From positions 966,675-1,030,674 of the forward strand of contig OZ240664.1 of the NCBI GenBank assembly GCA_965198435.1: a DNA stretch of 64,000 nt. Direction: 5' to 3'. This document shows, one piece after another, positions 332-60,114 of this stretch. Under the pieces are notes generated by a model. The model was not told where the DNA came from and did no database searches. It saw nothing but the letters and a program-made list of their open reading frames with translations. Within the stretch, counting starts at the first letter, position 1. Each line of letters starts with the position of its first letter. The position numbers were made by a program, and so were the translations under genes. This DNA comes from an uncultured Pseudohongiella sp. Lineage in GTDB: Bacteria > Pseudomonadota > Gammaproteobacteria > Pseudomonadales > Pseudohongiellaceae.

Positions 332-471
332 GGAACCTCTGGTTAATTACCTACGTTGTTATTGCTGCGTTAAAAATCAGCTCAAAATGCGCATTTATGA
401 CCTATAAGCTGCGCTTTTTCGCTGACTTTTGCCTTGCACTAACTGCCTCGCAAACATTAATCAGAGGCTCC
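332..471 (+). mobile_element. MITE-A copy A1 (140 bp, orientation F)
   Basis: GGAACCTCTG..CAGAGGCTCC with a flanking TTAG/TTAG direct repeat. Lies 21 bp upstream of the EncFtn-like start codon. Confidence 0.9.
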
Positions 472-512
472 TTAGTCTGTTTTTAGCATTCTAATCCACA
501 GCAACTCGAACT

Positions 513-734
513 TTAACTGGAAAGCAGCGGGTAGCTTGCAAGCACGTCTCGAAATGTGCGCCTGAACTGAATTTTAGCACTTTCCTCATGCACATATTCA
601 CCAGGCACAACTTGATAAACACGGCTTATTATTCTTCGCCAGATTTCACTGCCAGACTCAGTTTCAGAAATGAGTATGTCGATGATGGCAGCATAGTTTA
701 TCTTAATCTCAGTTGTCATGCTTTCAATTCGCAT
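513..734 (-). CDS. hypothetical small protein (weak)
   Basis: ORF only. No family recognised and the surrounding 472-1130 region looks decayed. Confidence 0.2.
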   Translation of the reverse strand: MRIESMTTEIKINYAAIIDILISETESGSEIWRRIISRVYQVVPGEYVHEESAKIQFRRTFRDVLASYPLLSS

Positions 735-1130
735 AAACGGATCGATGTCTTACTGATCACTGCACAAATTCACAGGGTTGTAATTCAGCATCACTGGAAT
801 ATCGTTGGTTTTATCATTTCGCGTAACACTCTTCTCCAGGAAAGCAGCATCAAATTTGGCAACGAGATAATCCTCGAGAGAATTAGGACTATCGTTCGCG
901 GTAAGCCTGTAGCTTGTGTAGGAAGCATAGCTCTCCGGACAACAAAGAAGTTAGATCAGCACTGATCCGGCCTGCATTTGTATTACAAGCAGCTATAGAA
1001 AAATAAGCCTGATAAAAGTAATAAGCGACCTTTCAATAGGGCACCTCTGTATCTGATGTATCTGAAAATATGTGCTCCCTTATTACATTCTAAAGTGAGG
1101 CGATATTTACATATTGACCCAGCTTAAACA

Positions 1131-1715
1131 TTAACGACCTATCGTTTTGCGCATTTGTTCAGCCAATTCTGGATTACTGCCCTGGGCGAGCTGATCAATG
1201 ACGTTTAATCGGTCTGCAAGTGGCCGATTTTGGCTTAGTTTATATTTACACTGAATACTATCGACTTCAATCTCTACCCCAACGATTGCACTCAACATTT
1301 TTAAATCGAATTCACTATCCCATGAGGGGCTGCGCCCTTGTTCATAATTTGAGCTAAGGGTTTTCACCAGCTCCAGCAACCGATCTTTTTCTGTAAAGCA
1401 GCGCGCAACACCTGATATGTGTACTGCTTGATAGTTCCAGGTGGGAACGCCTGGGTTTTCATACCAGGTTGGACTTATATAGCTATGATTTCCAGGAAGA
1501 ACAATTAAGACTTTCTGCCCGTCCAGGTTCTGCCATTGCGGATTAGCTTTCGCCAGGTGCGCTTGAATCAGATTTTCAGAGGCGCGATTGAATGGCAGAT
1601 GCGTAGCAAAGGGTAAGCCATTTACTTGTGAAATAAGGATGCCGAAATCGTTTCTCTGGATAAACTCATCAATTTCAGCGGTGTCATTAACCGCGAAATG
1701 GTGGGGGACAAACAT
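1131..1715 (-). CDS. PaiB-family FMN-binding negative transcriptional regulator
   Basis: 194 aa. The N-terminus MFVPHHFAVNDTAEIDEFIQRNDFGILIS is typical of the PaiB family. Confidence 0.7.
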   Translation of the reverse strand: MFVPHHFAVNDTAEIDEFIQRNDFGILISQVNGLPFATHLPFNRASENLIQAHLAKANPQWQNLDGQKVLIVLPGNHSYISPTWYENPGVPTWNYQAVHISGVARCFTEKDRLLELVKTLSSNYEQGRSPSWDSEFDLKMLSAIVGVEIEVDSIQCKYKLSQNRPLADRLNVIDQLAQGSNPELAEQMRKTIGR

Positions 1716-1766
1716 ATCATATTCCGAATACTGTGATTGGGTTGCTGCTTCGTTGCTGTGACTGCG

Positions 1767-2540
1767 TCATTTCACAAACTCAAAGAAGCGGTTCGTCGTT
1801 GCGCTGCCATCTGCATCGAAATTCTGTTCATTGAATCGTACTCTTCCAGACGATTCCATAATAACCGCAGTGGAGCAACGGGTACCATACTCTCTCCGGG
1901 TGTTATGTATGAATGCTGCGGATAGTTCACGTTCCAGTTCCATAGGCACTCCTGTCTGCGGCAGTTCTGCATCTTGCGCTTGCTGGGTATCACCCATCAT
2001 CGCGATAAGAGCGTCTGTGCTTAATTGCTCCGGTGATTGAACCAGCGTTTCCAGTTTCAATCGGCTACGCACTACTTTGGGCCAATCGTTGTTCAGTAGA
2101 CCATTAGACAATCCATAAATCCCTGGCTCCAGTTGCCGCGTGACAGCCTCGAAGTTATTCACGTAGTACATCGATTCACTGTCGCTAACGATCAAATTGA
2201 ACCCAGCGAATTGATCTAGCTTTAGACTTTCTGCATAGTCTGCAGCCGATTGCCCTGATTGTAAGAAATCCAAGGTCAATTCTCCTCGTGAACGGGGTTT
2301 CTGTTCGGGTTGAGATGGATCTCGGATATTGGTTACTGCGGCAAATCTCCCGGCGCGATTGATACCAAGCCAGGTACCACCAGCCTGCAAATCCTTGCCT
2401 GCCAATACCTGCGTGGTGCCAGCATTGTCAGCCCAGAAATCTGCATGTTGGGTAGGTCGGGGGAAGAATTCGTCCCGATTTGCTGCCAGCACCAGTGGAT
2501 AAGCAGTTACAGCCTGATGGGCGAAAACGATAAGACACAT
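1767..2540 (-). CDS. NRDE (TANGO2/DUF833) family protein
   Basis: 257 aa. Has the MCLIVFA N-terminus and the AANRDEF motif characteristic of the NRDE family. Confidence 0.75.
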   Translation of the reverse strand: MCLIVFAHQAVTAYPLVLAANRDEFFPRPTQHADFWADNAGTTQVLAGKDLQAGGTWLGINRAGRFAAVTNIRDPSQPEQKPRSRGELTLDFLQSGQSAADYAESLKLDQFAGFNLIVSDSESMYYVNNFEAVTRQLEPGIYGLSNGLLNNDWPKVVRSRLKLETLVQSPEQLSTDALIAMMGDTQQAQDAELPQTGVPMELERELSAAFIHNTRREYGTRCSTAVIMESSGRVRFNEQNFDADGSATTNRFFEFVK

Positions 2541-2541
2541 T

Positions 2542-2778
2542 AGGGCCTGTTCACACTAATTGAGTGGCCTCTGCTAGAGGGCATTTTTGCGTTCAGCAAG
2601 GCAGAAAGAGTGCCGTATATAAATATATAAACGATTGATAACGAAGCTGGGCGCAAAAAAGCGCCACTTGTCGTTGCTCGTCGCTCATTCGGAATCACCA
2701 AACTACGCCCCTCGCCGCGCCTCAATTGGCGCTTTTTTAGTCTCAACAGAGATCACTCCATTAGTGTGAACAGGCCCT
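2542..2778 (+). mobile_element. MITE-B copy B1 (237 bp)
   Basis: Terminal inverted repeats AGGGCCTGTTCACACTAAT / ATTAGTGTGAACAGGCCCT (19 bp perfect, about 36 bp imperfect). The left end abuts the ATG of the NRDE gene. Confidence 0.85.
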
Positions 2779-3703: not shown

Positions 3704-3731
3704 TACAAACAGTTAAATTCCATCAACTTTA

Positions 3732-3871
3732 GGAGCCTCTGATTAATGTTTGCGAGGCAGTTAGTGCAAAGCAAAAATCAGCGAAAAAGCGCAGTTTATA
3801 GGTCATAAATGCGCATTTTGAGCTGATTTTTAACGCAGCAATAACAACGTAGGTAATTAATCAGAGGTTCC
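3732..3871 (-). mobile_element. MITE-A copy A2 (140 bp, orientation R)
   Basis: GGAGCCTCTG..CAGAGGTTCC with TTTA/TTTA flanks. Lies between lgt and thyA, both on the plus strand. Confidence 0.9.
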
Positions 3872-6677: not shown

Positions 6678-6817
6678 GGAACCTCTGATTAATTACCTAC
6701 GTTGTTATTGCTGCGTTAAAAATCAGCTCAAAATGCGCATTTATGACCTATAAACTGCGCTTTTTCGCTGATTTTTGCCTTGCACTAACTGCCTCGCAAA
6801 CATTAATCAGAGGCTCC
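6678..6817 (+). mobile_element. MITE-A copy A3 (140 bp, F)
   Basis: TTAA/TTAA flanks. Lies 16 bp upstream of the argA ATG and 9 bp downstream of the argE stop. Confidence 0.9.
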
Positions 6818-8034: not shown

Positions 8035-8174
8035 GGAACCTCTGATTAATTACCTACGTTGTTATTGCTGCGTTAAAAATCAGCTCAAAATGCGCATTTA
8101 TGAGCTATAAACTGCGCTTTTTCGCTGATTTTTGCCTTGCACTAACTGCCTCGCAAACATTAATCAGAGGCTCC
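8035..8174 (+). mobile_element. MITE-A copy A4 (140 bp, F)
   Basis: Flanks are CTAG/CTGG (1 mismatch). Lies downstream of the phhB-like gene. Confidence 0.9.
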
Positions 8175-8574: not shown

Positions 8575-8714
8575 GGAACCTCTGATTAATTACCTACGTT
8601 GTTATTACTGTGTTAAAAATCAGCTCAAAATGCGCATTTATGCCCTATAAACTGCGCTTTTTCACTGGTTTTTGCCTTGCACTAACTGCCTTGCAAACAT
8701 TAATCAGAGGCTCC
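8575..8714 (+). mobile_element. MITE-A copy A5 (140 bp, F)
   Basis: TTAA/TTAA flanks. The element end is 4 bp upstream of the phhB TTG start. Confidence 0.9.
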
Positions 8715-12308: not shown

Positions 12309-12448
12309 GGAGCCTCTGATTAATTACCTACGTTGTTATTGCTGCGTTAAAAATCAGCTCAAAATGCGCATTTATGCCCTATAAACTGCGCTTTTTCGCT
12401 GATTTTTACCTTGCACTAACTGCCTCGCAAACATTAATCAGAGGCTCC
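12309..12448 (+). mobile_element. MITE-A copy A6 (140 bp, F)
   Basis: TTAG/TTAG flanks. The left end reads GGAGCC, giving perfect TIRs. Lies 9 bp upstream of the metX ATG. Confidence 0.9.
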
Positions 12449-14890: not shown

Positions 14891-15925
14891 ATGAACATTA
14901 CAGAACTTTTGGAATTCAGTGTGGAGCAGGGTGCATCGGACTTGCACATTACCGCTGGCATGCCTCCACTGATTCGCGTTGATGGTGATATTCGACGCAT
15001 CAACGTGCCTGAAATGGATCATAAGGAAGTGCACTCGTTGATTTACGAGGTTATAAACGATAAGCAGCGAAAGGACTATGAAGAATTCCTGGAGATCGAC
15101 TTCTCTTTAGAAGTTCCAAACCTGGCGCGATTTCGTGGTAATGCTTTTATTCAACATCGTGGTGCCGCAGCAGCATTTCGTACCATTCCATCGAAAGTGC
15201 TTTCAATGGAACAACTTGATATGGGCGACGTATTCCGAAAAATATCAGATATGCCTCGTGGCCTGATCTGCGTAACAGGACCAACGGGTTCGGGAAAGAG
15301 TACAACGCTTGCCGCCATGATAGATTATATTAATGACACCAGGTATGAGCACATTCTCACGATTGAGGATCCGATCGAATTTGTACACCATAGTAAAAAG
15401 TGTCTGGTGAATCAGCGTGAAGTGTATAGAGATACACATGGCTTTAATGAGGCACTGCGTTCAGCACTTCGTGAAGACCCAGATATCATTCTCGTTGGTG
15501 AGCTTCGTGACCTGGAGACGATTCGTCTTGCGCTAACGGCTGCAGAAACCGGCCACCTGGTTTTGGCCACATTACATACCACTTCAGCTGCCGAGAGTAT
15601 TGACCGTGTAATCGATGTATTTCCAGCCGCAGAAAAAAACGTGGTACGGTCCATGTTGTCGGAATCACTGCAAGCGGTAATTTCACAAACGCTAATGAAG
15701 AAACCCGGCGGTGGTCGAGTCGCAGCCCGTGAAATTATGATTGGTACGGCTGCGATTCGAAATCTGATTCGAGAAGACAAAGTGGCGCAGATGTATTCAG
15801 CTATTCAGACTGGTGCATCAGTGGGCATGCAGACTTTGGACCAGTGTTTGAAGGATTTATTGATGAAGGGCCTTATTACGAGGGAAGATGCAAGGTCCAA
15901 GGCCAAGATGCCCGAAAACTTCTAG
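14891..15925 (+). CDS. pilT: type IV pilus twitching motility ATPase PilT
   Basis: 344 aa with Walker A GPTGSGKST and the PilT signature. Divergent from yggS, as in Pseudomonas. Confidence 0.9.
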   Translation: MNITELLEFSVEQGASDLHITAGMPPLIRVDGDIRRINVPEMDHKEVHSLIYEVINDKQRKDYEEFLEIDFSLEVPNLARFRGNAFIQHRGAAAAFRTIPSKVLSMEQLDMGDVFRKISDMPRGLICVTGPTGSGKSTTLAAMIDYINDTRYEHILTIEDPIEFVHHSKKCLVNQREVYRDTHGFNEALRSALREDPDIILVGELRDLETIRLALTAAETGHLVLATLHTTSAAESIDRVIDVFPAAEKNVVRSMLSESLQAVISQTLMKKPGGGRVAAREIMIGTAAIRNLIREDKVAQMYSAIQTGASVGMQTLDQCLKDLLMKGLITREDARSKAKMPENF

Positions 15926-16185
15926 GGCCTGTTCACACTAATTAAGTGGTCTTTGCTAGAGAGCATTTTTGCGCTCAGCAAGGCAGAAAGAGTGCCGTAT
16001 ATAACTATATATAAACTATTGATAACGAAGCTGGGCGCAAAGATGCGCCTAGCCCTTCGGGGGTTGTGGCTAAAAAAGCGCCACTTGTCGTTGCTCGTCG
16101 CTCATTTGGAATCACCAAACTACGCTCCTCAATTGGCGCTTTTGTAGTCACAACAGAGATCACTTAATGAGTGTGAACAGGCCCT
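15924..16185 (+). mobile_element. MITE-B copy B2 (262 bp)
   Basis: Same termini as B1, with TA on both flanks. The pilT TAG stop overlaps the left junction. Confidence 0.85.
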
Positions 16186-16189
16186 AATT

Positions 16190-17439
16190 TGTAGAAGTTT
16201 AGACCTGATCTGACAGTTACCCGTTTATCTGTGGTGTCTCTCCGGTGAAGTCCAGGTTACACACTTTTCCATCCAGATTTGTTTTCCACCGATGAGTGTC
16301 TCCATCGGCGTTCTCCCGCAGCACATTTTGCTTTGGTGAGTGCGTTGAGTAGTGTATTTAGCCAACCAGTGGTCAAGGTCCTTTTGTAAGTCCTCCAACT
16401 GATCGTAAATCTTTTTACGTAAAGCAATCCTGTAAAACTCATCCTTCACCGTCTTAATGGAACCGCTCGCAGATGCCATGGGTTTGTGGTGACTTGACCT
16501 TGGTCCTGGTGTGCTCAATCTCGTTGAGCGATAAAGACAGCGGATCATCATGCTGTTCAGCTTTGCCACAATACGCCGTCCCACGATCCGTCAAAATACG
16601 CAACACAGGAAGCTCTTGCTCTTCGTAGAACGGCAAGACACGATCATTGCATTAAGAGTAAATCCACTGCGTTCATCGGTCCTTTTTTTGGGGGGTATGA
16701 CGCTTCACCTGAGCCACGTTGGTAGTTGCTACGCGTATCGACGTAGGTTGCAGGTTTGCGGATATAACCAGCCTATGCTTTTGAACGTGCCTGCTAAACG
16801 TGCCCACATAGTCCGTATCCTGAGAACCCAGATAGCCCGGGTGGGCTGTTTCAATCTCGCTTGCGGCCACATCGTCTTGTTGTTTGCGTTCCATCGCCGC
16901 CACCTGAGACTCGGTGAGAATAGGGCCCTCTTGAGCCACCAAGGCGTCCAGCACCTTGAGACGGTCTTTGAAGCACGCCAAGTGATGGCGTAACCAAGAT
17001 ACCCCGAATACCACTGAGTGAGACAAAGGTGCCTCGCTTACGCCGTTCATTGCTGGTGCGCGTTTGTCCATGAGCAGGTTCTTCAACCGCGTACTTAACC
17101 ACCGATTCAACGGCAGGATCAATCCGATTTTTCAGATTGGGCTGGCGACGATTGCTGTCAAACAGAGTATCAACGCCGCCTTCCTCTGTGGCTGACTTGT
17201 CACGATAAAACGTATCGCGTGACAGCCCCATCATTTTGCAGGCTTTGGATACATTGCCCGGCTCTTCGGCCAGATTGGGCAGGCCGATTTTGTGTTTAAT
17301 AACTTTTTCCGTAGATATGGATCATGAGAGTGACCTCTTTGTTTTGATTTAGGGTGTGGTAACCACATCAAAACGGGCAACTTTCTTGCGGGCATTCCTT
17401 TCGAACTACCAACTGTTAGATCAGGTCTAAACTTCTACA
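16190..17439 (-). mobile_element. IS481-family insertion sequence, degenerate (1250 bp)
   Basis: 29-bp inverted repeats at 16190-16218 (TGTAGAAGTTTAGACCTGATCTGACAGTT) and 17411-17439, matching 28 of 29. Flanking direct repeat CCTAATT at 16183-16189 and 17440-17446. Confidence 0.85.
16225..17325 (-). pseudogene. IS481-family DDE transposase, multiple frameshifts
   Basis: Transposase-like peptides are scattered over three frames: MMGLSRDTFYR, ETAHPGYLGSQDT, LRILTDRGTAYCGK..HTRTKVKSPQTHGICERFH, and MCCGRTPMETL. The first frameshift is within 5 codons of the ATG at 17325. Confidence 0.8.
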
Positions 17440-17676: not shown

Positions 17677-17827
17677 GGAACCTCTGATTAATTACCTATT
17701 AATTACCTACGTTGTTATTGCAGCGTTAAAAATCATCTCAAAATGCGCATTTATGACCTGTAAACTGCGCTTTTTCGCTGATTTTTGCCTTGCACTAACT
17801 GCCTCGCAAACATTAATCAGAGGCTCC
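17677..17827 (+). mobile_element. MITE-A copy A7 (151 bp, F)
   Basis: Carries one extra subterminal 11-mer (ATTAATTACCT x2). Flanks CCAG/TTAA do not match. Contains the last 3 codons and the TGA stop of ruvX. Confidence 0.9.
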
Positions 17828-18266
17828 TTAAATCGTTGAACCAGTTTCGCAAGATAATTTGAGCTGCAATATCGTCGATGGCAGATTTTTTGTTGATGTT
17901 ACCTTCTTCAATAGCTTGCTCTATAGCTGCTTTCGAAGACAAACGTTCATCCATTCCGAAACTTGGCATGTTAAAGCGACCATTTAGACGATTCCCAAAC
18001 TTTACTGCTCTAGGCAGAAGCTCACTGTCAGAGCCATCCAGATTATAGGGCAGGCCAACCACGAATACGTCCGGCCGCCAATCCTCGATCAATTTTTCAA
18101 TCTGATCCCAATCGGGGATGCCGTCTTTTGCCTTTAATACACATATGGCCTGCGCTGTTCCCGTGATGCTTTGGCCAAATGCTACACCAATTCGCTGAGT
18201 CCCATAATCGAATGCCAGCGCAGCTATAGGTTTCGATCTATCGTTTGGAAAATTTTGCAGGCTCAT
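17817..18266 (-). CDS. ruvX: Holliday junction resolvase-like protein RuvX/YqgF
   Basis: 149 aa with the YqgF family N-terminus (ALAFDYGTQRIGVA). The C-terminal RSL-stop is encoded by MITE A7. Confidence 0.85.
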   Translation of the reverse strand: MSLQNFPNDRSKPIAALAFDYGTQRIGVAFGQSITGTAQAICVLKAKDGIPDWDQIEKLIEDWRPDVFVVGLPYNLDGSDSELLPRAVKFGNRLNGRFNMPSFGMDERLSSKAAIEQAIEEGNINKKSAIDDIAAQIILRNWFNDLRSL

Positions 18267-22357: not shown

Positions 22358-22544
22358 GGAGCCTCTGATTAATGTTTGCGAGGCAGTTAGTGCAAGGCAA
22401 AAATCAGCGAAAAAGCGCAGTTTATAGGCCATAAATGCGCATTTTGAGCGGATTTTTAACGCAGCAATAACAACGTAGGTAATTATTAATAGGTAATTAA
22501 TAGGTAATTAATAGGTAATTAATAGGTAATTAATCAGAGGTTCC
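22358..22544 (-). mobile_element. MITE-A copy A8 (187 bp, R) with expanded subterminal repeat
   Basis: Starts directly after the TAG stop of the upstream GT. Holds a 58-bp array of the AGGTAATTAAT subterminal 11-mer. Confidence 0.9.
22477..22534. repeat. tandem array of the MITE-A subterminal 11-mer
   Basis: AGGTAATTATTAAT (14 nt) followed by 4 x AGGTAATTAAT. Canonical copies have a single unit. Confidence 0.9.
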
Positions 22545-22555: not shown

Positions 22556-23488
22556 ATGACAACATCAACCCGTGTGGCAATCTTGCTCTCTACTTACAAT
22601 GGAGAAAAATTCCTTTGCGAACAACTGGATTCATTGTTAACGCAAAGCCACGACAATTTCATTTTGGTTGCGAGAGATGATGGATCGTCAGACGAAACCT
22701 GGAATATTCTGCAGGACTACCAGGGCAGATACTCGCAGAAGATTTACCTTGCGGAAGGTGACATAACTAATCTCGGTGCCAGAGATAGTTTTGCCTATCT
22801 GATAGACTATGCCTTGCGTTACAAGCAAAAACTAGAACTGGAAGATGCCTATATGTTGTTTTGTGATCAGGATGATGTATGGTTTCCGAACAAGATCGAA
22901 ACGCAACTCAACGCCATGTTGAAATGCGAAGCTGGCAACCCTGGGGCCCCGGTGCTCGTTTACAGTGATCTGGAAGTCGTATCAGAGTCTTTGAAAGTAG
23001 TCGCACCTTCGCTGGCACGTTACCAGGGATTGGAAACCCACCGAAATAGTTTCAATCAAATGGTTATCAGCAACCTGGTCACCGGTTGTACAGCCATGCT
23101 TAATGAGGCATTAGCCAGCAAGTGCCTGCCTGTTTCGAAGAATGCCATTATGCATGACTGGTGGCTGGCGCTGGTGGCATCAGCATTTGGTAAGGTGGTC
23201 TATCTTGATCAAGCGCTCGTCCACTATCGTCAACATGGCAGCAATGCGATAGGAGCGAAGGAGCACAAGCAGGCTGTTGTCACTCGACCTGGATTCTGGA
23301 GCAGGCTGTCTAGTCTGCAACCTGATGACCATCTGTTGGAGGTGGCGGTGCAGGCTAGAGATTTCGCCGATCAGTTCGGTGCTTATCTGTCGGAACATCA
23401 GCGTGCTGGTTTGAAGTTAGCAGGTAAGATGGAGGCCACAACAGGAATTTTGCAGCGCATTTATTACAGAAGAGCACGGCGCTACTAG
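22556..23488 (+). CDS. family 2 glycosyltransferase
   Basis: 310 aa. VAILLSTYNGEKFL..ARDDGSSD..FCDQDDVW is the classic GT2 pattern. Confidence 0.75.
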   Translation: MTTSTRVAILLSTYNGEKFLCEQLDSLLTQSHDNFILVARDDGSSDETWNILQDYQGRYSQKIYLAEGDITNLGARDSFAYLIDYALRYKQKLELEDAYMLFCDQDDVWFPNKIETQLNAMLKCEAGNPGAPVLVYSDLEVVSESLKVVAPSLARYQGLETHRNSFNQMVISNLVTGCTAMLNEALASKCLPVSKNAIMHDWWLALVASAFGKVVYLDQALVHYRQHGSNAIGAKEHKQAVVTRPGFWSRLSSLQPDDHLLEVAVQARDFADQFGAYLSEHQRAGLKLAGKMEATTGILQRIYYRRARRY

Positions 23489-23762
23489 GGCCTGTTCACA
23501 CTAATTGAGTGGCCTCTGCTAGAGAGGATTTTTGCGTCCAGTGAGGCAGAAAGAGTGCCTTATATAAATATATATAAACGATTGATAACAAAGCTGGGCG
23601 CAAAAATGACCCTGGCCCTTCGGGTTGCGGCTAAAGCGGCTAAAAAAACGCCACTTGTCGTTGCTCGTCGCTCATTTGGAACAACCAAACTACGTTCCTC
23701 GCGCCTCAATTCGCGCTTTTTTAGTCACAACAGAGGCCACTCAATTAGTGTGAACAGGCCCT
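23487..23762 (+). mobile_element. MITE-B copy B3 (276 bp)
   Basis: Same termini as B1 and B2. Overlaps the TAG stop of the upstream GT and ends 3 bp from the stop of the 1406-aa gene. Confidence 0.85.
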
Positions 23763-23765
23763 GGT

Positions 23766-26700
23766 TCAAGGAGCGAGCGGCTTTTCAGCTTTTCTAATTT
23801 CACTTAATCTCTCCAGGATTTGTTTGCCAATCGCGGCAGGAGAGAAATTGGTGTCAATAAAGTTTTTCGCACTATCTCCAATGCGTTTAGCGAGTTGAGG
23901 ATTATCAACCAGTTTTTTCATATACTCGCTTGCTTGTTGCACATCGGCGTCAGCCCAACGCTGTCCAGCATTGTACGGTCCGTAGTCAACTTCCAGGTTT
24001 ACTAATTCGTAGTCTACCGCCAGGCAATTATCTTCCGTCATGTAGTCCGTGTTTCCTGACCAGTTGGTTAAGATACAGGGCTTGCCGACTGACATGGCCT
24101 CAGCAGGACCTAGTCCAAATCCTTCAGATCGATGCAGTGATACATAACAATCAGTGCAGTTAATCAGGCTATCGATCTCGTTACGGCTATGGTGTCGGTC
24201 CAGAATAAAAATATTTGACCAACCTTCCAGATTCTTTTGTAATGCCGCCAGGTCTGTTTTTGCCGGGTTGTTCATTTTCAACACCAGACAAACTGACTTG
24301 TCCAAGGCAGAAAAAGCACGCTGAAATGCTTGAACCGTCGCTTTCGTATTCTTCCTTTCAGCAATGCTTCGCGTATCGTACATTGCAAGGAATACAAAAG
24401 CGGATTGTGGGATACCGAAGTTATCACGACCGATCTCACTATCTGGGCTAAGCGCTACATTGTGCCCTATGACGGTGACGGGCAGTTGGGTTTCCTTCGC
24501 TACCGCGTCTTTTACAAATTCAGATGGCACCCAAATCTCATCCAGGAACTCTAACGAACCCAGCCAGTGCTGCGGGAGCGTTTCCAATTCCCAGGCCCAG
24601 AAAGCAATATTGTAACGCGCTTGAAAAAAGTAGCTTGGAAGTTCTGAATACATCAAGGGAATAAAATCACCATTGATATGAATCAGGTTTATATCGTAAT
24701 CAGGTCGCGACGATTCAAAATCCAGCCAATCATAGTTGGTCATGCTCGCTGGATTCCCGTGCTCAAAATTGATGATACCGAAATCTATATTCGCTGCTTT
24801 TAAGGCCCTGGCATCAGCACGTGCCGCTTCTCCTAATCCCATATTGGCTCGAATATAGCCAATGAGATTTACACCGTTTCGAGGTATGAGGGGTTTATTG
24901 GAATAATCAGCCTTTAAATCTTCGGGGATTGCGGCAATGAGTTCTTTCACAGGTACGTCAAAAATGAGCGAACAGTTAACAGTGTGAAGTGATAGATTTG
25001 GGTTGTAATGTGGATCTCCACTTTCGAACAACCAGCGCCATCGTTTCCATAAATAGTTCTCATCTGCATCATTTCCTCTTGGCTCGCGGCTGATGCTTTC
25101 ATGATGGATCAATGTACAGCGGCTGGTCCAAAGATTGCGCAAGCCGTTTTTTCTCAAACGCAGGCAAAAATCTATGTCGTTGCCAACTATTTTTAGTTCC
25201 TCATCGAAACCATCTATCCCATCGAATTTCTTTCTGGACACCATCAAGCAGGCACCGGTGTTGGCGGATACTTCTCGTACCCGCTGGTCCAACTCCATGT
25301 AATGTCCGTCTTTCGGCTTTAACTTATGAAAAAGATGAAGCCCACCGCCGCCGTAGTTGATAAGGAAAATACCGGCATGTTGCAAGGCACCAGCAGGATA
25401 AAGTAGCTTACACCCAATTGCGCCTGTCTCTTTACGTTGGGACAGACTTACAAGTTCCTGCAGCCAGTCTTCCTGAATGATTTCAATGTCATCGTTCAGA
25501 AAGAGCAGATGCTCACCCTTGGCATGTTGCGCACCAATATTGTTAAGTCGGGCCCAGTTAAAGGGCTCATCGCATTCCACGATTTTGAAGTTTTGCTTGG
25601 CAAGATAGTCGAAACCATCCTGGTTTTCGCCGCGACCATTATTGAGGATTATGACTTCAAAATTCTTATAAGTAGTTAAAGTCTGCAGAGATTCGATACA
25701 GGGTTTGAGCAGGCTCAGCTTGCCGAGGGTTGGCATTATTATGGACACAAGCGGGTTTCCTTGAAGCTCCCACTTCAAAGATCGAATGCCATCCTGTTCC
25801 GACGCCTTAGCTGGCAGCGAATTACTATCGAGAAATTGCCTGATTACTTCAAACTCCTGTCGAGCATAGCCACGATTTTCAGAAAGTTCTGGCTCAGACC
25901 ACAATATATTGGGAATACGTTCGATTCGTGCTGCTTCCAGGCTTAGCCTGAGCAAGATTGCGTAACGCAGGGCGCAAAAGTTTTCCTTAGCCCAATCCAG
26001 TTGAAGAAACATCGACTGTTTTCCAAGATAAACACCGCCGACATAGTTGACCGAATAAAGCAAATCAGGAGACCAACTCCAGGTAAAAACAGGATTACTA
26101 TGATGTCCATCACTGTCGACCTGGTCATGGTCACTATAGACTAGCTGCGAACCACTCTCGAGTGCTCTCAGGTATAGCATCTGCAGCGCATAAGGCTGTA
26201 AGGTTTCACCAGCGTTCAAGGCCAGGGCATAGGATTGCTTTTCTGGATCAGGTGGTGCGTCGTCGAGGACAGTGATGCGCGACGCTAGCTTCGGGTACTT
26301 CCGTATCAGCTTTTCAGCAAACTCTCCATTCGCATTGAGTGTTACCAGATGAAATTCATCCCAGCTCTGTTGTGCCAGTGCGCTGAGGCTTTTGGTAAGT
26401 TTTTCTTTGTCTGTCCCACAGTTGAGTATGATTGTAATCGGATGCTTTGAGAGGCAGGCCAGCTTGCGCACGCTCCGGTTTTTATCCCGCGATTGTTCAG
26501 CGAAATGAAACCTGGACCAGGCATTAAACATATGGTTAGCACTAAGCTTATAAAACGTTGTCGATTCACTGACTTTGCCTGATGATTCTGTGCTAAAACT
26601 GACTTCAACCCGATGTTTACCTGCATTGAGACTGGCAAGATCAATACCCTCGTCAAAACCCGCATACATTGAGTGCTCAAGATGTCGATTCTTGCGATAA

Positions 26701-27986
26701 ACATCTGGTCGATATTTCGACGTCCTGGAAGATTTGAAGAGCAGACCATCGATATGCACATCGAAGCTGACAGGTCCCGAATCAGAAATTGCCCAACCTT
26801 GGATCAACAGCTCTTCGACACAAAGAATCTTGCCGTTGCTAAAGCTGTCCAGCTCGAATTTGATATTGGGAGAGGATGAGTTGTTCTGGTTTGCCTCGAA
26901 ACCTTGAGTAAACTTTCCTTTAAGTTTTTTTTTTGAGCCTCCAGGGAGATGTTGGCGGACCTTTCGGCTAACAAACCGCAATGGGCCAGTGATTCTCCAT
27001 GAAGTAGAATTCAGCATACGTCTCACAGCGTTGTCCAGGTCCTCGTGCAGCGCAATGAGTTTTTGATATTCATCATTTTTTAGAGCAAGCTGATTTTGCA
27101 AAGTTTCCTGGGTACGGCTTCTTTTATCAATATCACTGTTCAGCAGGATCATTTGGCGCTGTAAGTTTGAAATATCACTGTTCATCAATATCACTTGGCG
27201 CTGTAAGTTTGAAATCTCACTAAATATCTCTCCGAGCATCTGGTTGTACTCGTTCCCAGTCCAGATGCCCAACCACTTCTCAAACAATTTCGCTCTGCCA
27301 GCAGCAGTAGCTTTATCGGGTAAATATTTATCTTCATCATTGCTTGTGGCAGTGGTTGAACCTCCGCCTTGTCGATAGAAGGCTGTTGTTATGTTCAGAT
27401 GCAGAAAGTCTGTATGTCGGGCAAGTTGCAGCCAGAAATCCCAGTCTTCAAAATCGTCAAAATTTTCATCAAAACGGCAACCCTTGTTAAGAATAGAGCG
27501 GCGAAACAGCAATGAGTGAATGGCGATATAGTTGTCATGCATCAAAACTCGTCTGTCAAAATCTTGAGCAAATACTGTGTTGAGCAATTTGCCGTCTGCC
27601 GTTGTCAGTTGCGTATTTGAATAGGTCGCATCGATATCTGGATTTGATTCGAGTTCAGACAGCAGGGATGCAATGTGTTCCGATGCTATCCAGTCATCTT
27701 CATCCAAAAAAATTATGTACTCGCCTTGTGCTGCATCCAGTCCGGCATTGGCCGCTTTAGCTCGTGGCAATGGATTGCCTGGCGAAACGATTTTGCACTG
27801 AACAGGACCACTCCATGTAGATGCTTCATTTAAATCTTTGCAGGCAGCATCGACCAGAAGGAGTTCGAGATTGGGGTGGGTTTGGCAGGCGACCGATTGC
27901 AGCGCTTCCTGGAGTTCTCTGCGACCAGTAGTTCGGCAAATTATAGAAACCAGAGAGTTGGAACCGGGCACGGTATCAGTAGACAT
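23766..27986 (-). CDS. 1406-aa multi-domain glycosyltransferase (GT2 - coiled coil - GT2-like - GT2 - GT4/GT1)
   Basis: N-terminal GT2 (VSIICRTTGR, FLDEDDW). Coiled coil with the duplicated SDISNLQRQ segment and NSTSWRITGPLRF. Central GT2 (VSIIMPTLGK, FLNDDIEI). C-terminal GT4-like region (SLHRSEGFGLGPAEAMSVGKP). Confidence 0.8.
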   Translation of the reverse strand: MSTDTVPGSNSLVSIICRTTGRRELQEALQSVACQTHPNLELLLVDAACKDLNEASTWSGPVQCKIVSPGNPLPRAKAANAGLDAAQGEYIIFLDEDDWIASEHIASLLSELESNPDIDATYSNTQLTTADGKLLNTVFAQDFDRRVLMHDNYIAIHSLLFRRSILNKGCRFDENFDDFEDWDFWLQLARHTDFLHLNITTAFYRQGGGSTTATSNDEDKYLPDKATAAGRAKLFEKWLGIWTGNEYNQMLGEIFSEISNLQRQVILMNSDISNLQRQMILLNSDIDKRSRTQETLQNQLALKNDEYQKLIALHEDLDNAVRRMLNSTSWRITGPLRFVSRKVRQHLPGGSKKKLKGKFTQGFEANQNNSSSPNIKFELDSFSNGKILCVEELLIQGWAISDSGPVSFDVHIDGLLFKSSRTSKYRPDVYRKNRHLEHSMYAGFDEGIDLASLNAGKHRVEVSFSTESSGKVSESTTFYKLSANHMFNAWSRFHFAEQSRDKNRSVRKLACLSKHPITIILNCGTDKEKLTKSLSALAQQSWDEFHLVTLNANGEFAEKLIRKYPKLASRITVLDDAPPDPEKQSYALALNAGETLQPYALQMLYLRALESGSQLVYSDHDQVDSDGHHSNPVFTWSWSPDLLYSVNYVGGVYLGKQSMFLQLDWAKENFCALRYAILLRLSLEAARIERIPNILWSEPELSENRGYARQEFEVIRQFLDSNSLPAKASEQDGIRSLKWELQGNPLVSIIMPTLGKLSLLKPCIESLQTLTTYKNFEVIILNNGRGENQDGFDYLAKQNFKIVECDEPFNWARLNNIGAQHAKGEHLLFLNDDIEIIQEDWLQELVSLSQRKETGAIGCKLLYPAGALQHAGIFLINYGGGGLHLFHKLKPKDGHYMELDQRVREVSANTGACLMVSRKKFDGIDGFDEELKIVGNDIDFCLRLRKNGLRNLWTSRCTLIHHESISREPRGNDADENYLWKRWRWLFESGDPHYNPNLSLHTVNCSLIFDVPVKELIAAIPEDLKADYSNKPLIPRNGVNLIGYIRANMGLGEAARADARALKAANIDFGIINFEHGNPASMTNYDWLDFESSRPDYDINLIHINGDFIPLMYSELPSYFFQARYNIAFWAWELETLPQHWLGSLEFLDEIWVPSEFVKDAVAKETQLPVTVIGHNVALSPDSEIGRDNFGIPQSAFVFLAMYDTRSIAERKNTKATVQAFQRAFSALDKSVCLVLKMNNPAKTDLAALQKNLEGWSNIFILDRHHSRNEIDSLINCTDCYVSLHRSEGFGLGPAEAMSVGKPCILTNWSGNTDYMTEDNCLAVDYELVNLEVDYGPYNAGQRWADADVQQASEYMKKLVDNPQLAKRIGDSAKNFIDTNFSPAAIGKQILERLSEIRKAEKPLAP
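27130..27213. repeat. 2 x 42-bp tandem repeat inside the coiled-coil coding region
   Basis: Units at 27130-27171 and 27172-27213 differ at a few positions. Each encodes one 14-residue segment, giving (E/D)ISNLQRQVILMNSDISNLQRQMILLNSDI. Confidence 0.85.
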
Positions 27987-29644: not shown

Positions 29645-29784
29645 GCAACCTCTGATTAATTACCTACGTTGCTATTGCTGCGTTAAAAATCAGCTCAAAA
29701 TGTGCATTTATGACCTATAAACTGCACTTTTTCACTGATTTTTGCCTTGCACTCACTGCCTCGCAAACATTAATCAGAGGCTCC
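29645..29784 (+). mobile_element. MITE-A copy A9 (140 bp, F)
   Basis: TTAG/TTAG flanks. The left end is the variant GCAACC. Lies between the lysA stop (12 bp) and the dapF start (31 bp). Confidence 0.9.
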
Positions 29785-31496: not shown

Positions 31497-31636
31497 GGAA
31501 CCTCTGATTAATTACCTACGTTGTTATTGCTGCGTTAAAAATCAGCTCAAAATGCGCATTTATGACCTATAAACTGCGCTTTTTCGCTGATTTTTGCCTT
31601 GCACTAACTGCCTCGCAAACATTAACCAGAGGCTCC
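31497..31636 (+). mobile_element. MITE-A copy A10 (140 bp, F)
   Basis: CTAA/CTAA flanks. Sits in the divergent lptM / ABC-transporter spacer, 24 bp upstream of the ABC ATPase ATG. Confidence 0.9.
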
Positions 31637-37493: not shown

Positions 37494-38434
37494 TTATCCG
37501 CAGAAAAAACAGCCTTGATCATACACTTCTTGCTTGAGTAGATGTCCGTGCTTGTTAACCCAACTCCCATCCTTTAGGTCGCTCGCAAGTGCTTGTAATC
37601 CATTGTGTAAATCGTGTTCGTCTAATTTGTTTTGTGAAAGGTTGAAATTCCATTAAGATGACCTTCTTTGAGGTAGTTCTCCGGCTGCACCCAATACGCC
37701 ATCGCAGAATGATCCTGCAAATCTTTGGGCAATGGAAAGAGTTCCTGGGAAGAGCACTTATTTAACTCGCTCTCTGCGTAATTTCTTAGGGAACCTCTGA
37801 TTAATTACCTAGGTTGTTATTGCTGTGTTAAAAATCAGCTCAAAATGCGCATTTATGACCTATAAACTGCGCTTTTTCGCTGATCTTTGCCTTGCACTAA
37901 CTGCCTCGCAAACATTAATCAGAGGCTCCTTGGTTGATGTACGGAAAGGCTCAGGACTTTATCACTATCCTTAAACTGAGGAATGTAATCAAATAACTGG
38001 AAGCTGGCTTGGAATTCGATATCAAAGGCAAACATCACTAAAAGTCCATTGCTGATGACTCGAATTGCTTCCATTATCCCTTTTTGCCAATCCTGGAAGT
38101 GATGGGTACACAAGGTCATGACTGCTGCATCGAAGCGGTCATTACTGAAAAGAAGATTTTCAGCAATGCCATCATGACAACAGAGAGTTAGATGCTGTTT
38201 CGCCTGTCCACGCATAACAGAGGAAGGTTATACTGCGTTCACTTTCAGACCCAAACCCAAACCCCAACCCAGGCTCGGCGAGTCCACAACTGCAGTTTCC
38301 TGTTCCAGCTCCGATGTCATAAGTGAAGAGCCTTTACGTATAGCGCATAAATCGCTTAAGCGAGTGGCAATTCGAGGATGCGCTGCGCGAGTTGAGAAAC
38401 AGGTCTTACCAATCTGGTTGTAGCGGGCTGGCAT
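37494..38434 (-). pseudogene. class I SAM-dependent methyltransferase, disrupted by MITE A11, frameshifts and a nonsense codon
   Basis: The N-terminus YNQIGKTCFSTR..GSSL is in one frame and motif I DIGAGTGN is shifted. There is an in-frame TAA in VNAV*PSSVM. MITE A11 lies inside the gene, and the C-terminal part (AMAYWVQPENYL .. DLKDGSWV) continues beyond it. Confidence 0.8.
37790..37929 (+). mobile_element. MITE-A copy A11 (140 bp, F) inserted in a coding sequence
   Basis: Flanks TTAG/TTGG (1 mismatch). Gene-derived sequence lies on both sides. Confidence 0.9.
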
Positions 38435-42980: not shown

Positions 42981-43194
42981 GGAAGCTCTGATTAATGTTG
43001 GCGAGGCAGTCGGTGCACCAAAAGTAGCCGCTTCAGGCGAGGCAAAAATCGGCGAGCCGAAGTGTAGCGAAAACGGCACCCGCAAGGTGAGCAGCTTTAG
43101 CTGCGTAAAAAGCGCAGCTAATAACGCATAAATACGCACTTTGAGCTGATTTTTAACGCAGTAATGGCAACGCAGATAATTAATCAGAGGTTCC
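42981..43194 (-). mobile_element. MITE-A copy A12, divergent long variant (214 bp, R)
   Basis: Canonical ends (GGAAGCTCTGATTAAT .. ATTAATCAGAGGTTCC) with CTAA/CTAA flanks. About 74 bp of extra G+C-richer internal sequence includes a second GCGAGGCA segment. Confidence 0.8.
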
Positions 43195-45629: not shown

Positions 45630-45770
45630 GGAGCCTCTGATTAATGTTTGCGAGGCAGTTAGTGCAAGGCAAAAATCAGCGAAAAAGCGCAGTTTATAGG
45701 TCATAAATGCGCATTTTGAGCTGATTTTTAACGCAGCAATAACCAACGTAGGTAATTAATCAGAGGTTCC
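45630..45770 (-). mobile_element. MITE-A copy A13 (141 bp, R)
   Basis: Flanks GTAG/TTAG (1 mismatch). The ubiD stop codon (TAA, 45771-45773) directly abuts the element. Confidence 0.9.
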
Positions 45771-48672: not shown

Positions 48673-48825
48673 AGAACCTCTGATTAATTACCTACGTTGT
48701 TATTGCTGCATTAAAATGCTGCATTAAAAATCAGCTCAAAATGCGCATTTATTAGCTATAAACTGCGCTTTTTCGCTGATTTTTGCCTTGCACTAACTGC
48801 CTCGCAAACATTAATCAGAGGCTCC
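48673..48825 (+). mobile_element. MITE-A copy A14 (153 bp, F)
   Basis: CTAA/CTAA flanks. Has a 13-bp internal duplication (GCTGCATTAAAAT) and the left-end variant AGAACC. Lies 118 bp upstream of the rho ATG. Confidence 0.9.
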
Positions 48826-50048: not shown

Positions 50049-50188
50049 GGAACCTCTGATTAATTACCTACGTTGTTATTGCTGCGTTAAAAATCAGCTC
50101 AAAATGCGCATTTATGACCTATAAACTGCGCTTTTTCGCTGATTTTTGCCTTGCACTAACTGCCTCGTAAACATTAATCAGAGGCTCC
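50049..50188 (+). mobile_element. MITE-A copy A15 (140 bp, F)
   Basis: TTAA/TTAA flanks. Lies 13 bp downstream of the hemB stop. Confidence 0.9.
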
Positions 50189-55726: not shown

Positions 55727-55731
55727 GTGTC

Positions 55732-57380: not shown

Positions 57381-58526
57381 TTGCCAGAATTCAACAGGTC
57401 GAATCAGAGGCTCCTTAATTTGGTTATGGATTCTTTACCCTATTCCTGGCCCGTTTCGGGGAGCACGACGCTTGAAACCTTCCGCCAACACTTCGATGGG
57501 ATTGTGGCCAAATACGGCTGGGACTACCACGGCGGACGCAACTGGCGCAGCCGCGTGATCTATGACACCAACCTGCGCACCAGCTACGCCGCCGGACGCT
57601 ACCAGCAAATGAAAGCCGTAGCCCAGTCCCGCCCCTTCTGGCACTACCGCCACAGCCATGCCTCCGCCGAACCACGCCAGCAACACCTGCACTGGGACGG
57701 CCTGATCCTTAACCACAACGACCCCTTCTGGAACACCCACTATCCACCCAATGGCTGGGGCTGCAAGTGCTACGTGGAAACCCTCAGCCAACGTGACCTG
57801 GACAGACTCGGCAAACCCACCCCGGATACCACCCCACCCATCACCACCCGCGACTGGGTCAATAAATCCACCGGACAAATCCATCAAGTCCCCTCCGGCA
57901 TTGACCCCGGCTGGGCCCATGCCCCAGGACGTACATCACAACTCGGCGAAGCGGTACAACACCGCATCAGGCAGAGCACTAAACAATCAGTCGCCATTGC
58001 CTCACGGGGTGTAGAGCAAATGCTAAATCAACCTCGCACCCTCAGCGCCCTCACCACTCAGTGGCAACACTGGCGCAAACAGGGTGAGCCTGTGCTCAGA
58101 GACGCTCTCGAAGTCGGTGCCTTGAAGCCAGGCATCATCACCACGATGAATAAGACCAACACCACCATCACCAGCGCCGCTATCACCATCACCCGCAGCG
58201 ACCTCGCTCACCTGATTCGCGACAGCAAGAAAAGACGCAGCCAGGCCCTTGATGAGGATGACCTCGACCGGTTACCAGAGGGTCTTGCACATCCTGAGGC
58301 AGTGCTGCTGGACACAGAAGACCAAGCCCTGCTCTATGTGTTCACCCCAGCAAACGACAATACCCGCAAGGGTAAGGTGGTTATCCGGGTGAATTATAAG
58401 CAGAAAATGAATACCGGGCGCAGCAAACAGACCCAGGTAACACATTCAATCCGCACCGCAGGGTATGTGAGTAAGCGGGACTTGAACAACCCCCGCTATC
58501 AGGTGATTGAAGGTGAGATCAAGTGA
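57381..58526 (+). CDS. phage Mu F-like (SPP1 gp7 family) head morphogenesis protein, probably an N-terminally truncated remnant
   Basis: RTSYAAGRYQQM .. DPFWNTHYPPNGWGCKCYV is the Mu_F domain signature. The first ~13 codons come from flank and the MITE fragment, so the true N-terminus is probably lost. Confidence 0.6.
   Translation: MPEFNRSNQRLLNLVMDSLPYSWPVSGSTTLETFRQHFDGIVAKYGWDYHGGRNWRSRVIYDTNLRTSYAAGRYQQMKAVAQSRPFWHYRHSHASAEPRQQHLHWDGLILNHNDPFWNTHYPPNGWGCKCYVETLSQRDLDRLGKPTPDTTPPITTRDWVNKSTGQIHQVPSGIDPGWAHAPGRTSQLGEAVQHRIRQSTKQSVAIASRGVEQMLNQPRTLSALTTQWQHWRKQGEPVLRDALEVGALKPGIITTMNKTNTTITSAAITITRSDLAHLIRDSKKRRSQALDEDDLDRLPEGLAHPEAVLLDTEDQALLYVFTPANDNTRKGKVVIRVNYKQKMNTGRSKQTQVTHSIRTAGYVSKRDLNNPRYQVIEGEIK
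57402..57414 (+). mobile_element. MITE-A right-end fragment (13 nt)
   Basis: AATCAGAGGCTCC followed by TTAA. No MITE sequence lies to its left. It marks the left edge of the G+C-rich phage-derived block. Confidence 0.6.
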
Positions 58527-58754
58527 GACGACCAGTGAGAAGGGCATGGAAAGCGTAAACAGTGCCGCCAGGACGAGACGCCACCCTCGATGCAGTACGA
58601 CGGCCGTCATCCGAAGAAAACGGCGCTCCATCTACCGGGAGAGCGGTCTGACGAATGTCAATTACCCGGCCTACCCGGCGGCACACGGTAATGTGCCATA
58701 AGCACCCATCTTAAATCCAGCTAAACTCGTTATGAAATTCAGAAGTACGCGATT

Positions 58755-58952
58755 ATGAGCAAAATTGAGTGGACCAAGCAGACTTGGGTCCCCTTCACCA
58801 GATGTGTAAAAGCCTCACCAGGGTGCAAGTACTGCTATGCCGAAACGCAGAAACTACCAAATTACAGATCGTGGATTCCCGGAATCTATACGGCAACGGT
58901 CGGCTTGCTCTTAATAGCGGGAAGTATGAAACCTAATGAAAATCCACATTGA
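58755..58952 (+). pseudogene. phage Gp37/Gp68 (DUF5131) family protein, N-terminal fragment only
   Basis: [30 protein letters not shown] matches the family N-terminus. At 65 aa it is far short of the roughly 250 aa I expect. Confidence 0.5.
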
Positions 58953-59421
58953 ACTGGATACGACCGAAGCCCGCGCCGCCATTCAGCGGCTGATCCGCCT
59001 CAGCACCGACCTCACCCCCCTGATGCAGGATGTCGGGGAGCAACTGCTGAACTCCACCCGCCAACGCTTTCGCCACGAACAAGCCCCCGACAGCACCCCC
59101 TGGGCACCATTGTCCGACACCACCAAACGACGCAAAACAAAAAACCACGACAAAATCCTCACCGAAGACGGCCTGCTGGGCAGCCAGATCGTCTATCACG
59201 CTACCCCCAACAGCCTGGAAATTGGCAGTAACCGAATCTATGCCAGCACCCACCAGTTCGGAGCCAGCAAGGGCCAGTACGGAAATACCACCAAAGGCTC
59301 ACCCATACCCTGGGGCAATATCCCGACTAGACCCTTTCTCGGACTTTCCCCCCAAGACACAACCTCGATTCATGAAACCTTCAACCACCACCTGCAAACA
59401 CGCTGGGCTAATCCCACCTGA
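58936..59421 (+). CDS. phage virion morphogenesis protein (Mu G-like)
   Basis: 161 aa. [33 protein letters not shown] is typical of the virion morphogenesis family. Confidence 0.65.
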
Positions 59422-59760
59422 TCAAAACCGTCATCACACCCTCCTCTATCAGAGGTAAATGCCAAACCAAAACCGGTTTGACATAGTCAACATTCATTGG
59501 ATTTTTGAGCAGCTATGAGCGCTTATGAGCGGCTAATGCACAGAACTTTTCGCATGAATAAGCGACTACTTTTCGCATCACTCCACACACTGACCCAACC
59601 GCATCGTACTCTTGTTACCATTCCTCGCCTGCTCATTTACCGGCATCTTTTTCCTGGTTCGGCCTGGACATGACCCAGCTTACGAAAGAGTTCCTGTCAA
59701 GCAGTATACGATGCCCTCTTCCATCACTGTTGCCCAAATCCAAACTGGAAAGAAATAAGA

Positions 59761-59985
59761 TTGTTTCGCTCTATTTTTGATGACCATCCGATTTTTCAGG
59801 ACAGCTCAGGCTGGCGTCATCTGAAAGCCAATGCTTCAGACAATTGGCCGCTTCCTGGAGACGATGATGCTGGTCGATTACTCGAAGATGCATTGCAGTT
59901 TAATCCGGACCGCTATGGCAGGCTGGTTTCTGTTTCGGGTAGCACCGTCAGAACTGACACCGGAGTTGAACTAAGGAACCTCTGA
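59761..59985 (+). CDS. hypothetical ORF or gene fragment terminating inside MITE A16
   Basis: ORF only. The last 3 codons and the TGA come from the MITE left end. Confidence 0.15.
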   Translation: MFRSIFDDHPIFQDSSGWRHLKANASDNWPLPGDDDAGRLLEDALQFNPDRYGRLVSVSGSTVRTDTGVELRNL

Positions 59986-60114
59986 TTAATTACCTACGTT
60001 GTTATTGCTGCGTTAAAAATCAGCTCAAAATGCGCATTTATGACCTATAAACTGCGCTTTTTCGCTGATTTTTGCCTTGCACTAACTGCCTTGCAAACAT
60101 TAATCAGAGGCTCC
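59975..60114 (+). mobile_element. MITE-A copy A16 (140 bp, F)
   Basis: Flanks CTAA/CTAG (1 mismatch). Lies 6 bp downstream of the D-aminoacylase stop and forms the right edge of the phage-remnant block. Confidence 0.9.

Follow-up and report, generated by a model that had tools for sequence, protein, structure and literature searches.

The DNA described here is a 64-kb window (the whole stretch that was analysed) of contig OZ240664.1, from an uncultured Pseudohongiella sp. It contains many copies of a short repeat, which we call MITE-A, a transposable element of the miniature inverted-repeat type (MITE). The window is chromosomal and gammaproteobacterial, with a G+C content of 46%, and its genes include argA, argH, ubiD, rho, hemBCDXY and gshA. 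For the encoded UbiD, the nearest named relatives (~87% identical) belong to Pseudohongiella or the Pseudohongiellaceae.

Copies of MITE-A were collected by BLAST with the consensus and then extracted. This yielded 16 copies and a 13-nt relic of a right end, the same count as in a first-pass annotation of this DNA. The relic is unlikely to be fortuitous; by our own estimate, ~0.002 such matches are expected by chance. The density is one copy per 4 kb and MITE-A makes up ~3.7% of the window sequence. Lengths range from 140 to 214 bp and are exactly 140 bp in 11 of the 16 copies. Among the 140-bp copies, mean pairwise identity is 96.7%. Three copies are somewhat longer because short internal stretches are duplicated; two of the three have an expanded 11-bp subterminal unit, TTAATTACCTA. 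The unit lies just inside the left end and is repeated in tandem, with 2 and ~5 copies at 17677-17720 and 22497-22544, respectively; the expansions are a small minisatellite arising within the MITE. A covariance model, built from an alignment of the wider group of elements described below, finds all 16 copies in the window. Scores are 92-109 bits for 15 copies and 31.8 bits for a long form.

All copies occupy intergenic spacers, except that at 37790, which is inside a decayed methyltransferase pseudogene. MITE-A has no open reading frame (ORF) of its own. Similarly, a search of the window with 120 query proteins found no remnant of an IS5-type transposase (E ≤ 0.01). The first-pass annotation had placed the copies in spacers or a pseudogene, and had seen no transposase in the element and no full-length insertion sequence with these ends in the window; both descriptions hold. 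It also proposed a comparison with Rfam. No match to the window was obtained at the gathering threshold and nothing relevant was found for the window copies at E ≤ 1.

The termini of MITE-A are GGAACCTCTGATTAAT and, as the reverse complement of the other end, GGAGCCTCTGATTAAT; the second end can also be written ATTAATCAGAGGCTCC. Together these form 16-bp terminal inverted repeats that match at 15 of 16 positions, with an A/G difference at position 4. Re-extraction of the copies thus returned the ends first reported. Flanking 4-bp direct repeats are perfect for 10 of the 16 copies, have one mismatch for four and have been lost from two. By comparison, a perfect 4-bp match at such spacing would arise by chance in the window with a probability of 0.0056 per site. 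Read in the orientation of the element, the perfect repeats are TTAG (four copies), TTAA (three), CTAA (two) and TAAA (one). The first-pass annotation gave the same totals for perfect and mismatched repeats, but its division between tetranucleotides, with three copies each for TTAG and CTAA, was not reproduced. The single TTTA that it listed is TAAA read from the + strand. The duplicated tetranucleotides (TTAG, TTAA, CTAA, CTAG and TAAA) are centred on TA and agree with the 4-bp YTAR target of the IS5 group of insertion sequences (ISs).

Contigs syntenic with the window were reached via homologues of UbiD. The closest relative found was an ENA contig, L083, with a UbiD that is 96% identical at the amino acid level and with ~85% nucleotide identity to the window. 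It aligned to the window between 35.2 and 57.4 kb (~22 kb). The alignment was interrupted exactly at all five MITE-A copies in the shared stretch. All five sites are empty in L083 and, at each, the difference is exactly the element plus 4 bp, with the flanking tetranucleotide present once in L083 and on both sides of the element in the window (Table 1). Precise gain or loss of this kind, on which the first-pass annotation had staked its reading, was therefore seen at five of five sites. No MITE-A copies are present in the relatives L079, L083 and L084, and MITE-A-type ends are absent across seven related loci, L079-L085. Because the copies are ~97% alike, and relatives with ~85% nucleotide identity lack them, we conclude that MITE-A amplified recently in the source lineage. 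The class I methyltransferase gene (window 37503-38434, - strand) is intact in three relatives and decayed in the window. Here, the pseudogene has 54% identity over the alignment, several in-frame stop codons and one frameshift, in addition to the MITE insertion. Hence, as expected of a bacterial MITE, MITE-A is shorter than ~300 bp and non-coding, has terminal inverted repeats, makes a duplication of fixed length and occurs at sites that can be compared in filled and empty states.

Table 1. Positions of MITE-A copies, the long-form variant and the right-end relic in the window, with the matching empty sites in L083.
Feature	Position	Strand	Length	Flanking repeats	Remarks	Empty site in L083
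Copy 1	332..471	+	140 bp	TTAG/TTAG		
Copy 2	3732..3871	-	140 bp	TAAA/TAAA	Flanked by co-directional + genes; 28 bp past stop codon	
Copy 3	6678..6817	+	140 bp	TTAA/TTAA	Exact consensus sequence; 9 bp past stop codon; 16 bp upstream of argA longest-ORF start	
Copy 4	8035..8174	+	140 bp	CTAG/CTGG	One mismatch in repeat	
Copy 5	8575..8714	+	140 bp	TTAA/TTAA		
Copy 6	12309..12448	+	140 bp	TTAG/TTAG	GGAGCC at both ends	
Copy 7	17677..17827	+	151 bp	CCAG/TTAA	Left flank repeat lost; TTAATTACCTA present twice; ORF 17817-18266 (-) terminates within element	
Copy 8	22358..22544	-	187 bp		~5 copies of 11-bp unit; gap of 0 to stop codon of upstream gene	
Copy 9	29645..29784	+	140 bp	TTAG/TTAG	In ~25-bp spacer; genes co-directional	
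Copy 10	31497..31636	+	140 bp	CTAA/CTAA	Sole copy between divergent genes	
Copy 11	37790..37929	+	140 bp	TTAG/TTGG	Between codons 161 and 162 of methyltransferase pseudogene	Single TTAG
Long-form variant	42981..43194	-	214 bp	TTAG/TTAG	Same termini, diverged core; extra ~74-bp module after ...GCGCTTTTT; between hemD and hemX	Single CGAA (window: CTAA)
Copy 13	45630..45770	-	141 bp	CTAA/CTAC	Convergent hemY and ubiD on either side; ubiD stop codon within duplicated tetranucleotide	Single TTAG
Copy 14	48673..48825	+	153 bp	CTAA/CTAA	13-bp internal duplication; upstream of rho	Single TTAA (window: CTAA)
Copy 15	50049..50188	+	140 bp	TTAA/TTAA	13 bp past hemB stop codon	Single CTGA (window: TTAA)
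Copy 16	59975..60114	+	140 bp	CTAA/CTAG	6 bp past stop codon	
Right-end relic	57402..57414	+	13 nt		AATCAGAGGCTCC, then TTAA	

A plasmid search with the left end of MITE-A identified a 1.2-kb element on plasmid pUP202 of Methylomonas sp. UP202. Immediately after TTAA, this element starts with GGAACCTCTGATTAATTCC. Its product is annotated as an IS5 family transposase (WP_281023545.1) and the copy is frameshifted. At a TTTTTATAAAG stretch, the coding sequence (locus L086, 3078-4077) breaks into two frames that overlap. Since homologues are single 332-aa ORFs, the pUP202 copy is probably a frameshift mutant. The reconstructed 332-aa protein scored 283 bits with the NCBIfam model NF033581, 'IS5 family transposase' (cut-off 140), and it is on this score that its assignment to IS5 rests. 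Close homologues, among the best 120 of 8000, bear PF01609 and PF05598.

In assembly GCA_963853275.1, a homologue 86% identical to the pUP202 transposase is encoded at four places, each within a 1193-bp IS. This IS has the left end GGAACCTCTGATTAATTC and finishes ...TTTTTCAGAGGTTCC, so that its right end is GGAACCTCTGAAAAACAA as the reverse complement. The four copies are flanked by TAAA/TAAA, TATA/TATA, TTAA/TTAA and TTAA/CTAA. Compared with MITE-A, the pUP202 and GCA_963853275.1 ISs make the same 4-bp TA-centred duplication, and the first 16-18 nt of their left end are identical to both MITE-A ends. They differ in length (1193 bp), in encoding a 332-aa DDE transposase, in having AAAAAC at positions 11-16 of the right end and in residing in other organisms. 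Briefly, the MITE end GGAACCTCTGATTAAT is also the left end in a full-length IS, and the transposase of that IS scores above the cut-off of the family model. We conclude that a genuine IS5-family IS uses the MITE-A end and duplicates its target in the same way, down to the non-YTAR TAAA that flanks the copy at 3732. A full-length IS5-family element with the same left end, of the kind that the first-pass annotation suggested looking for, is thus found in other bacteria.

We then considered the position of MITE-A relative to genes, using contexts from a simple gene caller. Fourteen copies are between co-directional genes, one is between convergent genes and one is between divergent genes. A stop codon is no more than 33 bp away in 11 of the 16 cases, and within the duplicated tetranucleotide in two. 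Several of the spacers were merely ~25-55 bp before insertion, and look operon-like, for example that between hemD and hemX. In all 14 co-directional contexts, MITE-A, read in its consensus orientation, runs antisense to the genes (binomial p = 1.2e-4). Specifically, 11 + copies are among - genes and 3 - copies are among + genes (Fisher p = 0.003; our own calculation). The four reversed copies are located exactly where gene direction flips. Hence, the bias tracks transcription and not replication. The duplicated tetranucleotides hold no information on orientation, because CTAA and TTAG are equally frequent, and selection is therefore the likely cause of the fixed orientation. Our working idea is that the consensus sense would carry a hairpin followed by UUUUU and be polar inside operons. 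Selection against this polar, terminating orientation in operon-like spacers could then fix the orientation. The whole element is an imperfect palindrome, with a predicted hairpin fold of -48.5 kcal/mol (z = -8.6) in the consensus sense and -58.5 kcal/mol in the reverse sense. G-U pairs were a weak guide to the transcribed strand; the reverse sense folds 10 kcal/mol better but the G-U counts are 4 versus 3.

The best interpretation of these data is that MITE-A is a non-autonomous MITE, which an IS5-family (IS5-group) DDE transposase would mobilise in trans. We put the probability of this at about 0.88. The first-pass annotation had arrived at the same reading, a MITE with 4-bp YTAR duplications of IS5 type, and our results support it. 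The transposase would bind the 16-bp inverted repeats, GGA(A/G)CCTCTGATTAAT. Its targets for insertion would be tetranucleotides centred on TA, for the most part YTAR, with duplication of 4 bp. An IS with such ends, either present in the source genome or recently lost from it, would supply the enzyme. Nearly every surviving copy sits in a short spacer, just downstream of a stop codon.

Several observations weigh against this interpretation. No partner IS was seen in the window, or for the source genome among the best 120 of 8000 homologues of the pUP202 transposase, although this is weak evidence. Beyond ~18 nt, the interior of the MITE resembles neither end of the full-length ISs; therefore, MITE-A is no simple deletion derivative of those ISs. 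Furthermore, the left and right ends of the IS differ at positions 11-16 (ATTAAT versus AAAAAC) and both MITE-A ends are of the left type. Strict orientation is not what plain transposition would predict. As for the terminator idea, a simple scan for intrinsic terminators does not flag the core of the element, and the wider group, assessed at metagenome loci with a crude gene caller, has no consistent orientation relative to genes.

MITE-A also has features expected of repeats that are not transposons. The ERIC/IRU and REP/BIME sequences of enterobacteria are imperfect palindromes in intergenic DNA, co-transcribed at gene 3' ends, and MITE-A is likewise palindromic, intergenic and close to the 3' ends of genes. 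It could, in principle, be a repeat of this sort, a site like the attC of integrons or a family of small RNA genes, with recombination or a tyrosine or HUH enzyme as its means of spread. We consider this very improbable. The exact 4-bp target duplications and precise empty sites argue against it, as do inverted ends identical to those of a DDE IS. ERIC/IRU and REP/BIME have no IS-type inverted ends, no regular 4-bp duplication and no sequence similarity to MITE-A. Inspection of the sequence revealed neither a GTAG-type REP motif nor the layout of attC R-boxes, and no Rfam family was matched. Hence, assignment of MITE-A to REP/BIME, ERIC or attC was rejected.

If the transposase of MITE-A recognises only the ends, these should be found with other interiors. 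A scan of a genome collection for MITE-A ends listed at least 37 stretches, and those listed are in other species. The matches are in Microbulbifer, Spongiibacter, Methylomonas, Thiotrichaceae, Woeseiaceae, Sulfurifustaceae and many uncultured Gammaproteobacteria. Among the stretches listed, 14 are complete elements of 133-300 bp, with flanks that are mostly YTAR. MITE-A and these 14 elements form at least eight interior clusters without mutual similarity, as expected for a transposase reading only ends. One end pair, 2656 bp apart at locus L048, was considered as an IS and rejected because it encloses ordinary genes.

Conversely, the MITE-A interior is found with other ends. A Halomonas chromid has a MITE-A-type interior with the same ends and TTAA flanks, and copies on Pseudomonas plasmids have a related interior under the ends CAGGCTGTTGAAGAAC or GCTCTGTACGTAAAG. 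Using a degenerate pattern for the central 38 nt, we found at least 120 metagenome contigs that contain the ~100-bp interior hairpin. Elements in these contigs measure 140-143 bp, while long forms measure 210-211 bp and two nested examples 283-291 bp. Their ends fall into four classes: GAACCTATCTC, flanked by TA (15 of 15); GAAGCTGTTTTAAAAC, flanked by a 3-bp TNA; and CAGGCTGTTGAAAAAC and GGAACCTCTGATTAA, each flanked by YTAR. The covariance model also recovers the Halomonas, Pseudomonas and Spongiibacter members. The interior consensus had no match in 5,426 E. coli genomes, and a MITE-A-specific 24-mer had none in the metagenome scan. At E ≤ 1, Rfam returned nothing relevant for ten metagenome members. 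The group is undescribed in the literature searched by end and core sequences and in MITE reviews and surveys; ISfinder and the cMITE catalogue (PMC11602168) were outside this search.

Long forms (210-214 bp) occur at 42981-43194 in the window and at loci L137, L142, L152, L158, L165, L168, L173, L148 and L193. Each has an extra module of ~70 bp, always at the same point after ...CGCTTTTT of the core, and this arrangement is seen under at least three end classes. Motifs resembling AGCTAAAGCTG and CCTKCGGG are common to the modules; in the window copy, they seem to be opposite in order or orientation. Two of the long-form loci have further nested inserts.

The flanks of these sister elements raise the question of whether MITE-A owes its movement to a transposase that does not belong to the IS5 group and has similar ends by coincidence. 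Examples would be an enzyme of IS1182, of another IS5 subgroup or of IS630 type. Elements with the same interior flanked by TA or by TNA suggest that other types of transposase are involved, and no partner was found for the source genome. However, the 16-bp end of MITE-A is the left end of an IS5-family IS that makes 4-bp TA-centred duplications. In addition, the repeat flanking 14 of 16 window copies is 4 bp, and not 2, 3 or 9 bp. We therefore regard a mover from outside the IS5 group as improbable. No IS5 transposases were found beside ~150 related elements (945 kb of loci), and plasmid searches identified no ISs matching the other two end classes. A match in Manganitrophus from these searches was rejected, as it is not an IS. 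On a Pseudomonas veronii plasmid (locus L002, 3160-3310), a short decayed ORF lies ~40 bp downstream of a group member. It starts with MLRLLLSDEHWSK, which we take to resemble the N-terminus of IS5-family (IS427-type) transposases, and may be a relic of a neighbouring IS.

We next examined the interior shared by these elements. It is laid out as an asymmetric hairpin with the unpaired motifs GCGTT ... CTCRAAATGCKCATTTAY-N6-RTAAACTSCGCTTTTTCG ... GCCTTG. The motifs GCGTT, GCCTTG and TCG, which are outside the search pattern, show conservation of 90% or more; the arms are far more variable, at ~50-60% alike. An 8-bp stem beside the core covaries. We counted 208 double-change cells, compared with 57.6 +/- 6.7 after shuffling, and the covariation score was 0.348 versus no more than 0.091 for slid partners. 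One-sided G-U changes are rare in this stem; therefore, a palindrome acting at the level of DNA fits better than an RNA.

These properties could mean that the interior hairpin is a functional module in its own right. It might be a cis-acting enhancer of transposition, a site for a host factor, or a regulatory RNA or DNA hairpin (an orientation-dependent terminator or a stabiliser of mRNA 3' ends). Selection on the interior would then explain both its deep conservation and the fixed orientation of MITE-A. Besides the conserved motifs and the covarying stem, the persistence of the interior at near-constant length in at least 120 contigs under four classes of end and duplication is consistent with such a role. 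The same is true of the stability of the hairpin and of the 14 of 14 orientation in the window. Conversely, retrieval required 32 core bases, so the invariance of the core is partly circular. The rarity of one-sided G-U changes argues against the RNA versions, Rfam holds no match, the simple terminator scan was negative and the wider group has no consistent orientation. On balance, a function for the interior is possible but doubtful.

With similar reserve, we suggest that MITE-A might be one lineage of a very widespread, apparently uncatalogued proteobacterial group. The interior would be a selected module, kept while the ends and duplications (TA, TNA and YTAR) changed between IS5-type classes. 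Such a module, whether an enhancer, a host-factor site or an orientation-dependent hairpin, would explain the 14 of 14 orientation. The group may even include the Correia elements of Neisseria.

Correia elements (CREE/NEMIS) are, like MITE-A, dense MITEs; they are ~107-157 bp, form long hairpins in mRNA and have an internal block that sets their long forms apart from the short ones. To our knowledge, their transposase has never been identified. The left and right arms of Correia copies (loci L229 and L237) contain ACGGCGTT and GCCTTGTCCTG, respectively, and many members of the wider group have the same placement of this motif pair, which is non-complementary. However, Correia elements have a 26-bp inverted repeat, TATAGTGGATTAAC..., and a TA duplication, whereas MITE-A has other ends and duplicates 4 bp. 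Homology was not supported; nhmmer gave no match on the Correia copies and the best covariance-model match was 15 bits (E = 0.91). We treat the resemblance only as a possible lead.

The closest experimentally proven analogue of MITE-A is MITEPsy1, with its partner ISPsy2. MITEPsy1, from Pseudomonas syringae pv. phaseolicola, is 100 nt long, has the ends GGAAGGTCTGAAAAAGCC and makes a 4-nt CTAG/YTAA duplication (Bardaji et al. 2011; PMC3189936). It is attributed to ISPsy2, an IS5-family element of ~1.19 kb, and was trapped while transposing in vivo (PMC3189936). There are 6 copies per genome, which are intergenic and occasionally in genes (PMC3189936). Hence, MITEs of IS5 type with YTAR duplications are an already proven kind, of which MITE-A is one more member. 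Both elements are small and lack a transposase, with a 4-nt duplication and IS5-type inverted ends (GGAAGGTCTGAAAAAGCC for MITEPsy1 and GGAACCTCTGATTAAT for MITE-A). They differ in length (100 versus 140 nt) and abundance (6 per genome versus 16 per 64 kb), and transposition has been demonstrated for MITEPsy1, whereas MITE-A is known from sequence alone. MITE-A is not MITEPsy1 itself; only the type of end is similar and the published interior is unrelated.

Two other repeats were noted in the window. The first is a family unrelated to MITE-A, with three copies of ~240-290 bp at 2537-2785, 15919-16192 and 23482-23769. These have inverted ends, GGGCCTGTTCACACTAATTGAGTGG...CCACTCAATTAGTGTGAACAGGCCC, and an internal terminator-like GCGCCTCAATTGGCGC followed by TTTTTT. 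One copy is missing a block of ~40 bp and a clear target duplication was not seen. This family looks like another MITE. The second, at 27129-27212, is a 42-nt unit duplicated in tandem (90% identical) in an ORF for a 1406-aa multidomain glycosyltransferase. The duplication is in frame and adds 14 codons.

As a kind of element, MITE-A is ordinary, given the experimental proof for MITEPsy1 (PMC3189936). What goes beyond the ordinary is its density, its strict orientation in tiny co-directional spacers and the broad group to which it belongs, where a structured interior is conserved and the ends are interchangeable. The density, the 97% identity and the clean empty sites in a sister species mark a burst as recent; it can be dated, and its rules of insertion can be read directly. 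For annotation, MITE-A accounts for many inflated intergenic spacers, and for at least one change of a gene end, in the source genome. Copies held in one orientation within very short co-directional spacers are a natural experiment on how a 140-bp hairpin affects operon read-through. In some plant MITEs, interiors are selected for competence in transposition or for a host function. The interchangeable ends and interiors described here make it testable whether the interiors of bacterial MITEs are likewise selected, for transposition or host function, or are mere passengers.

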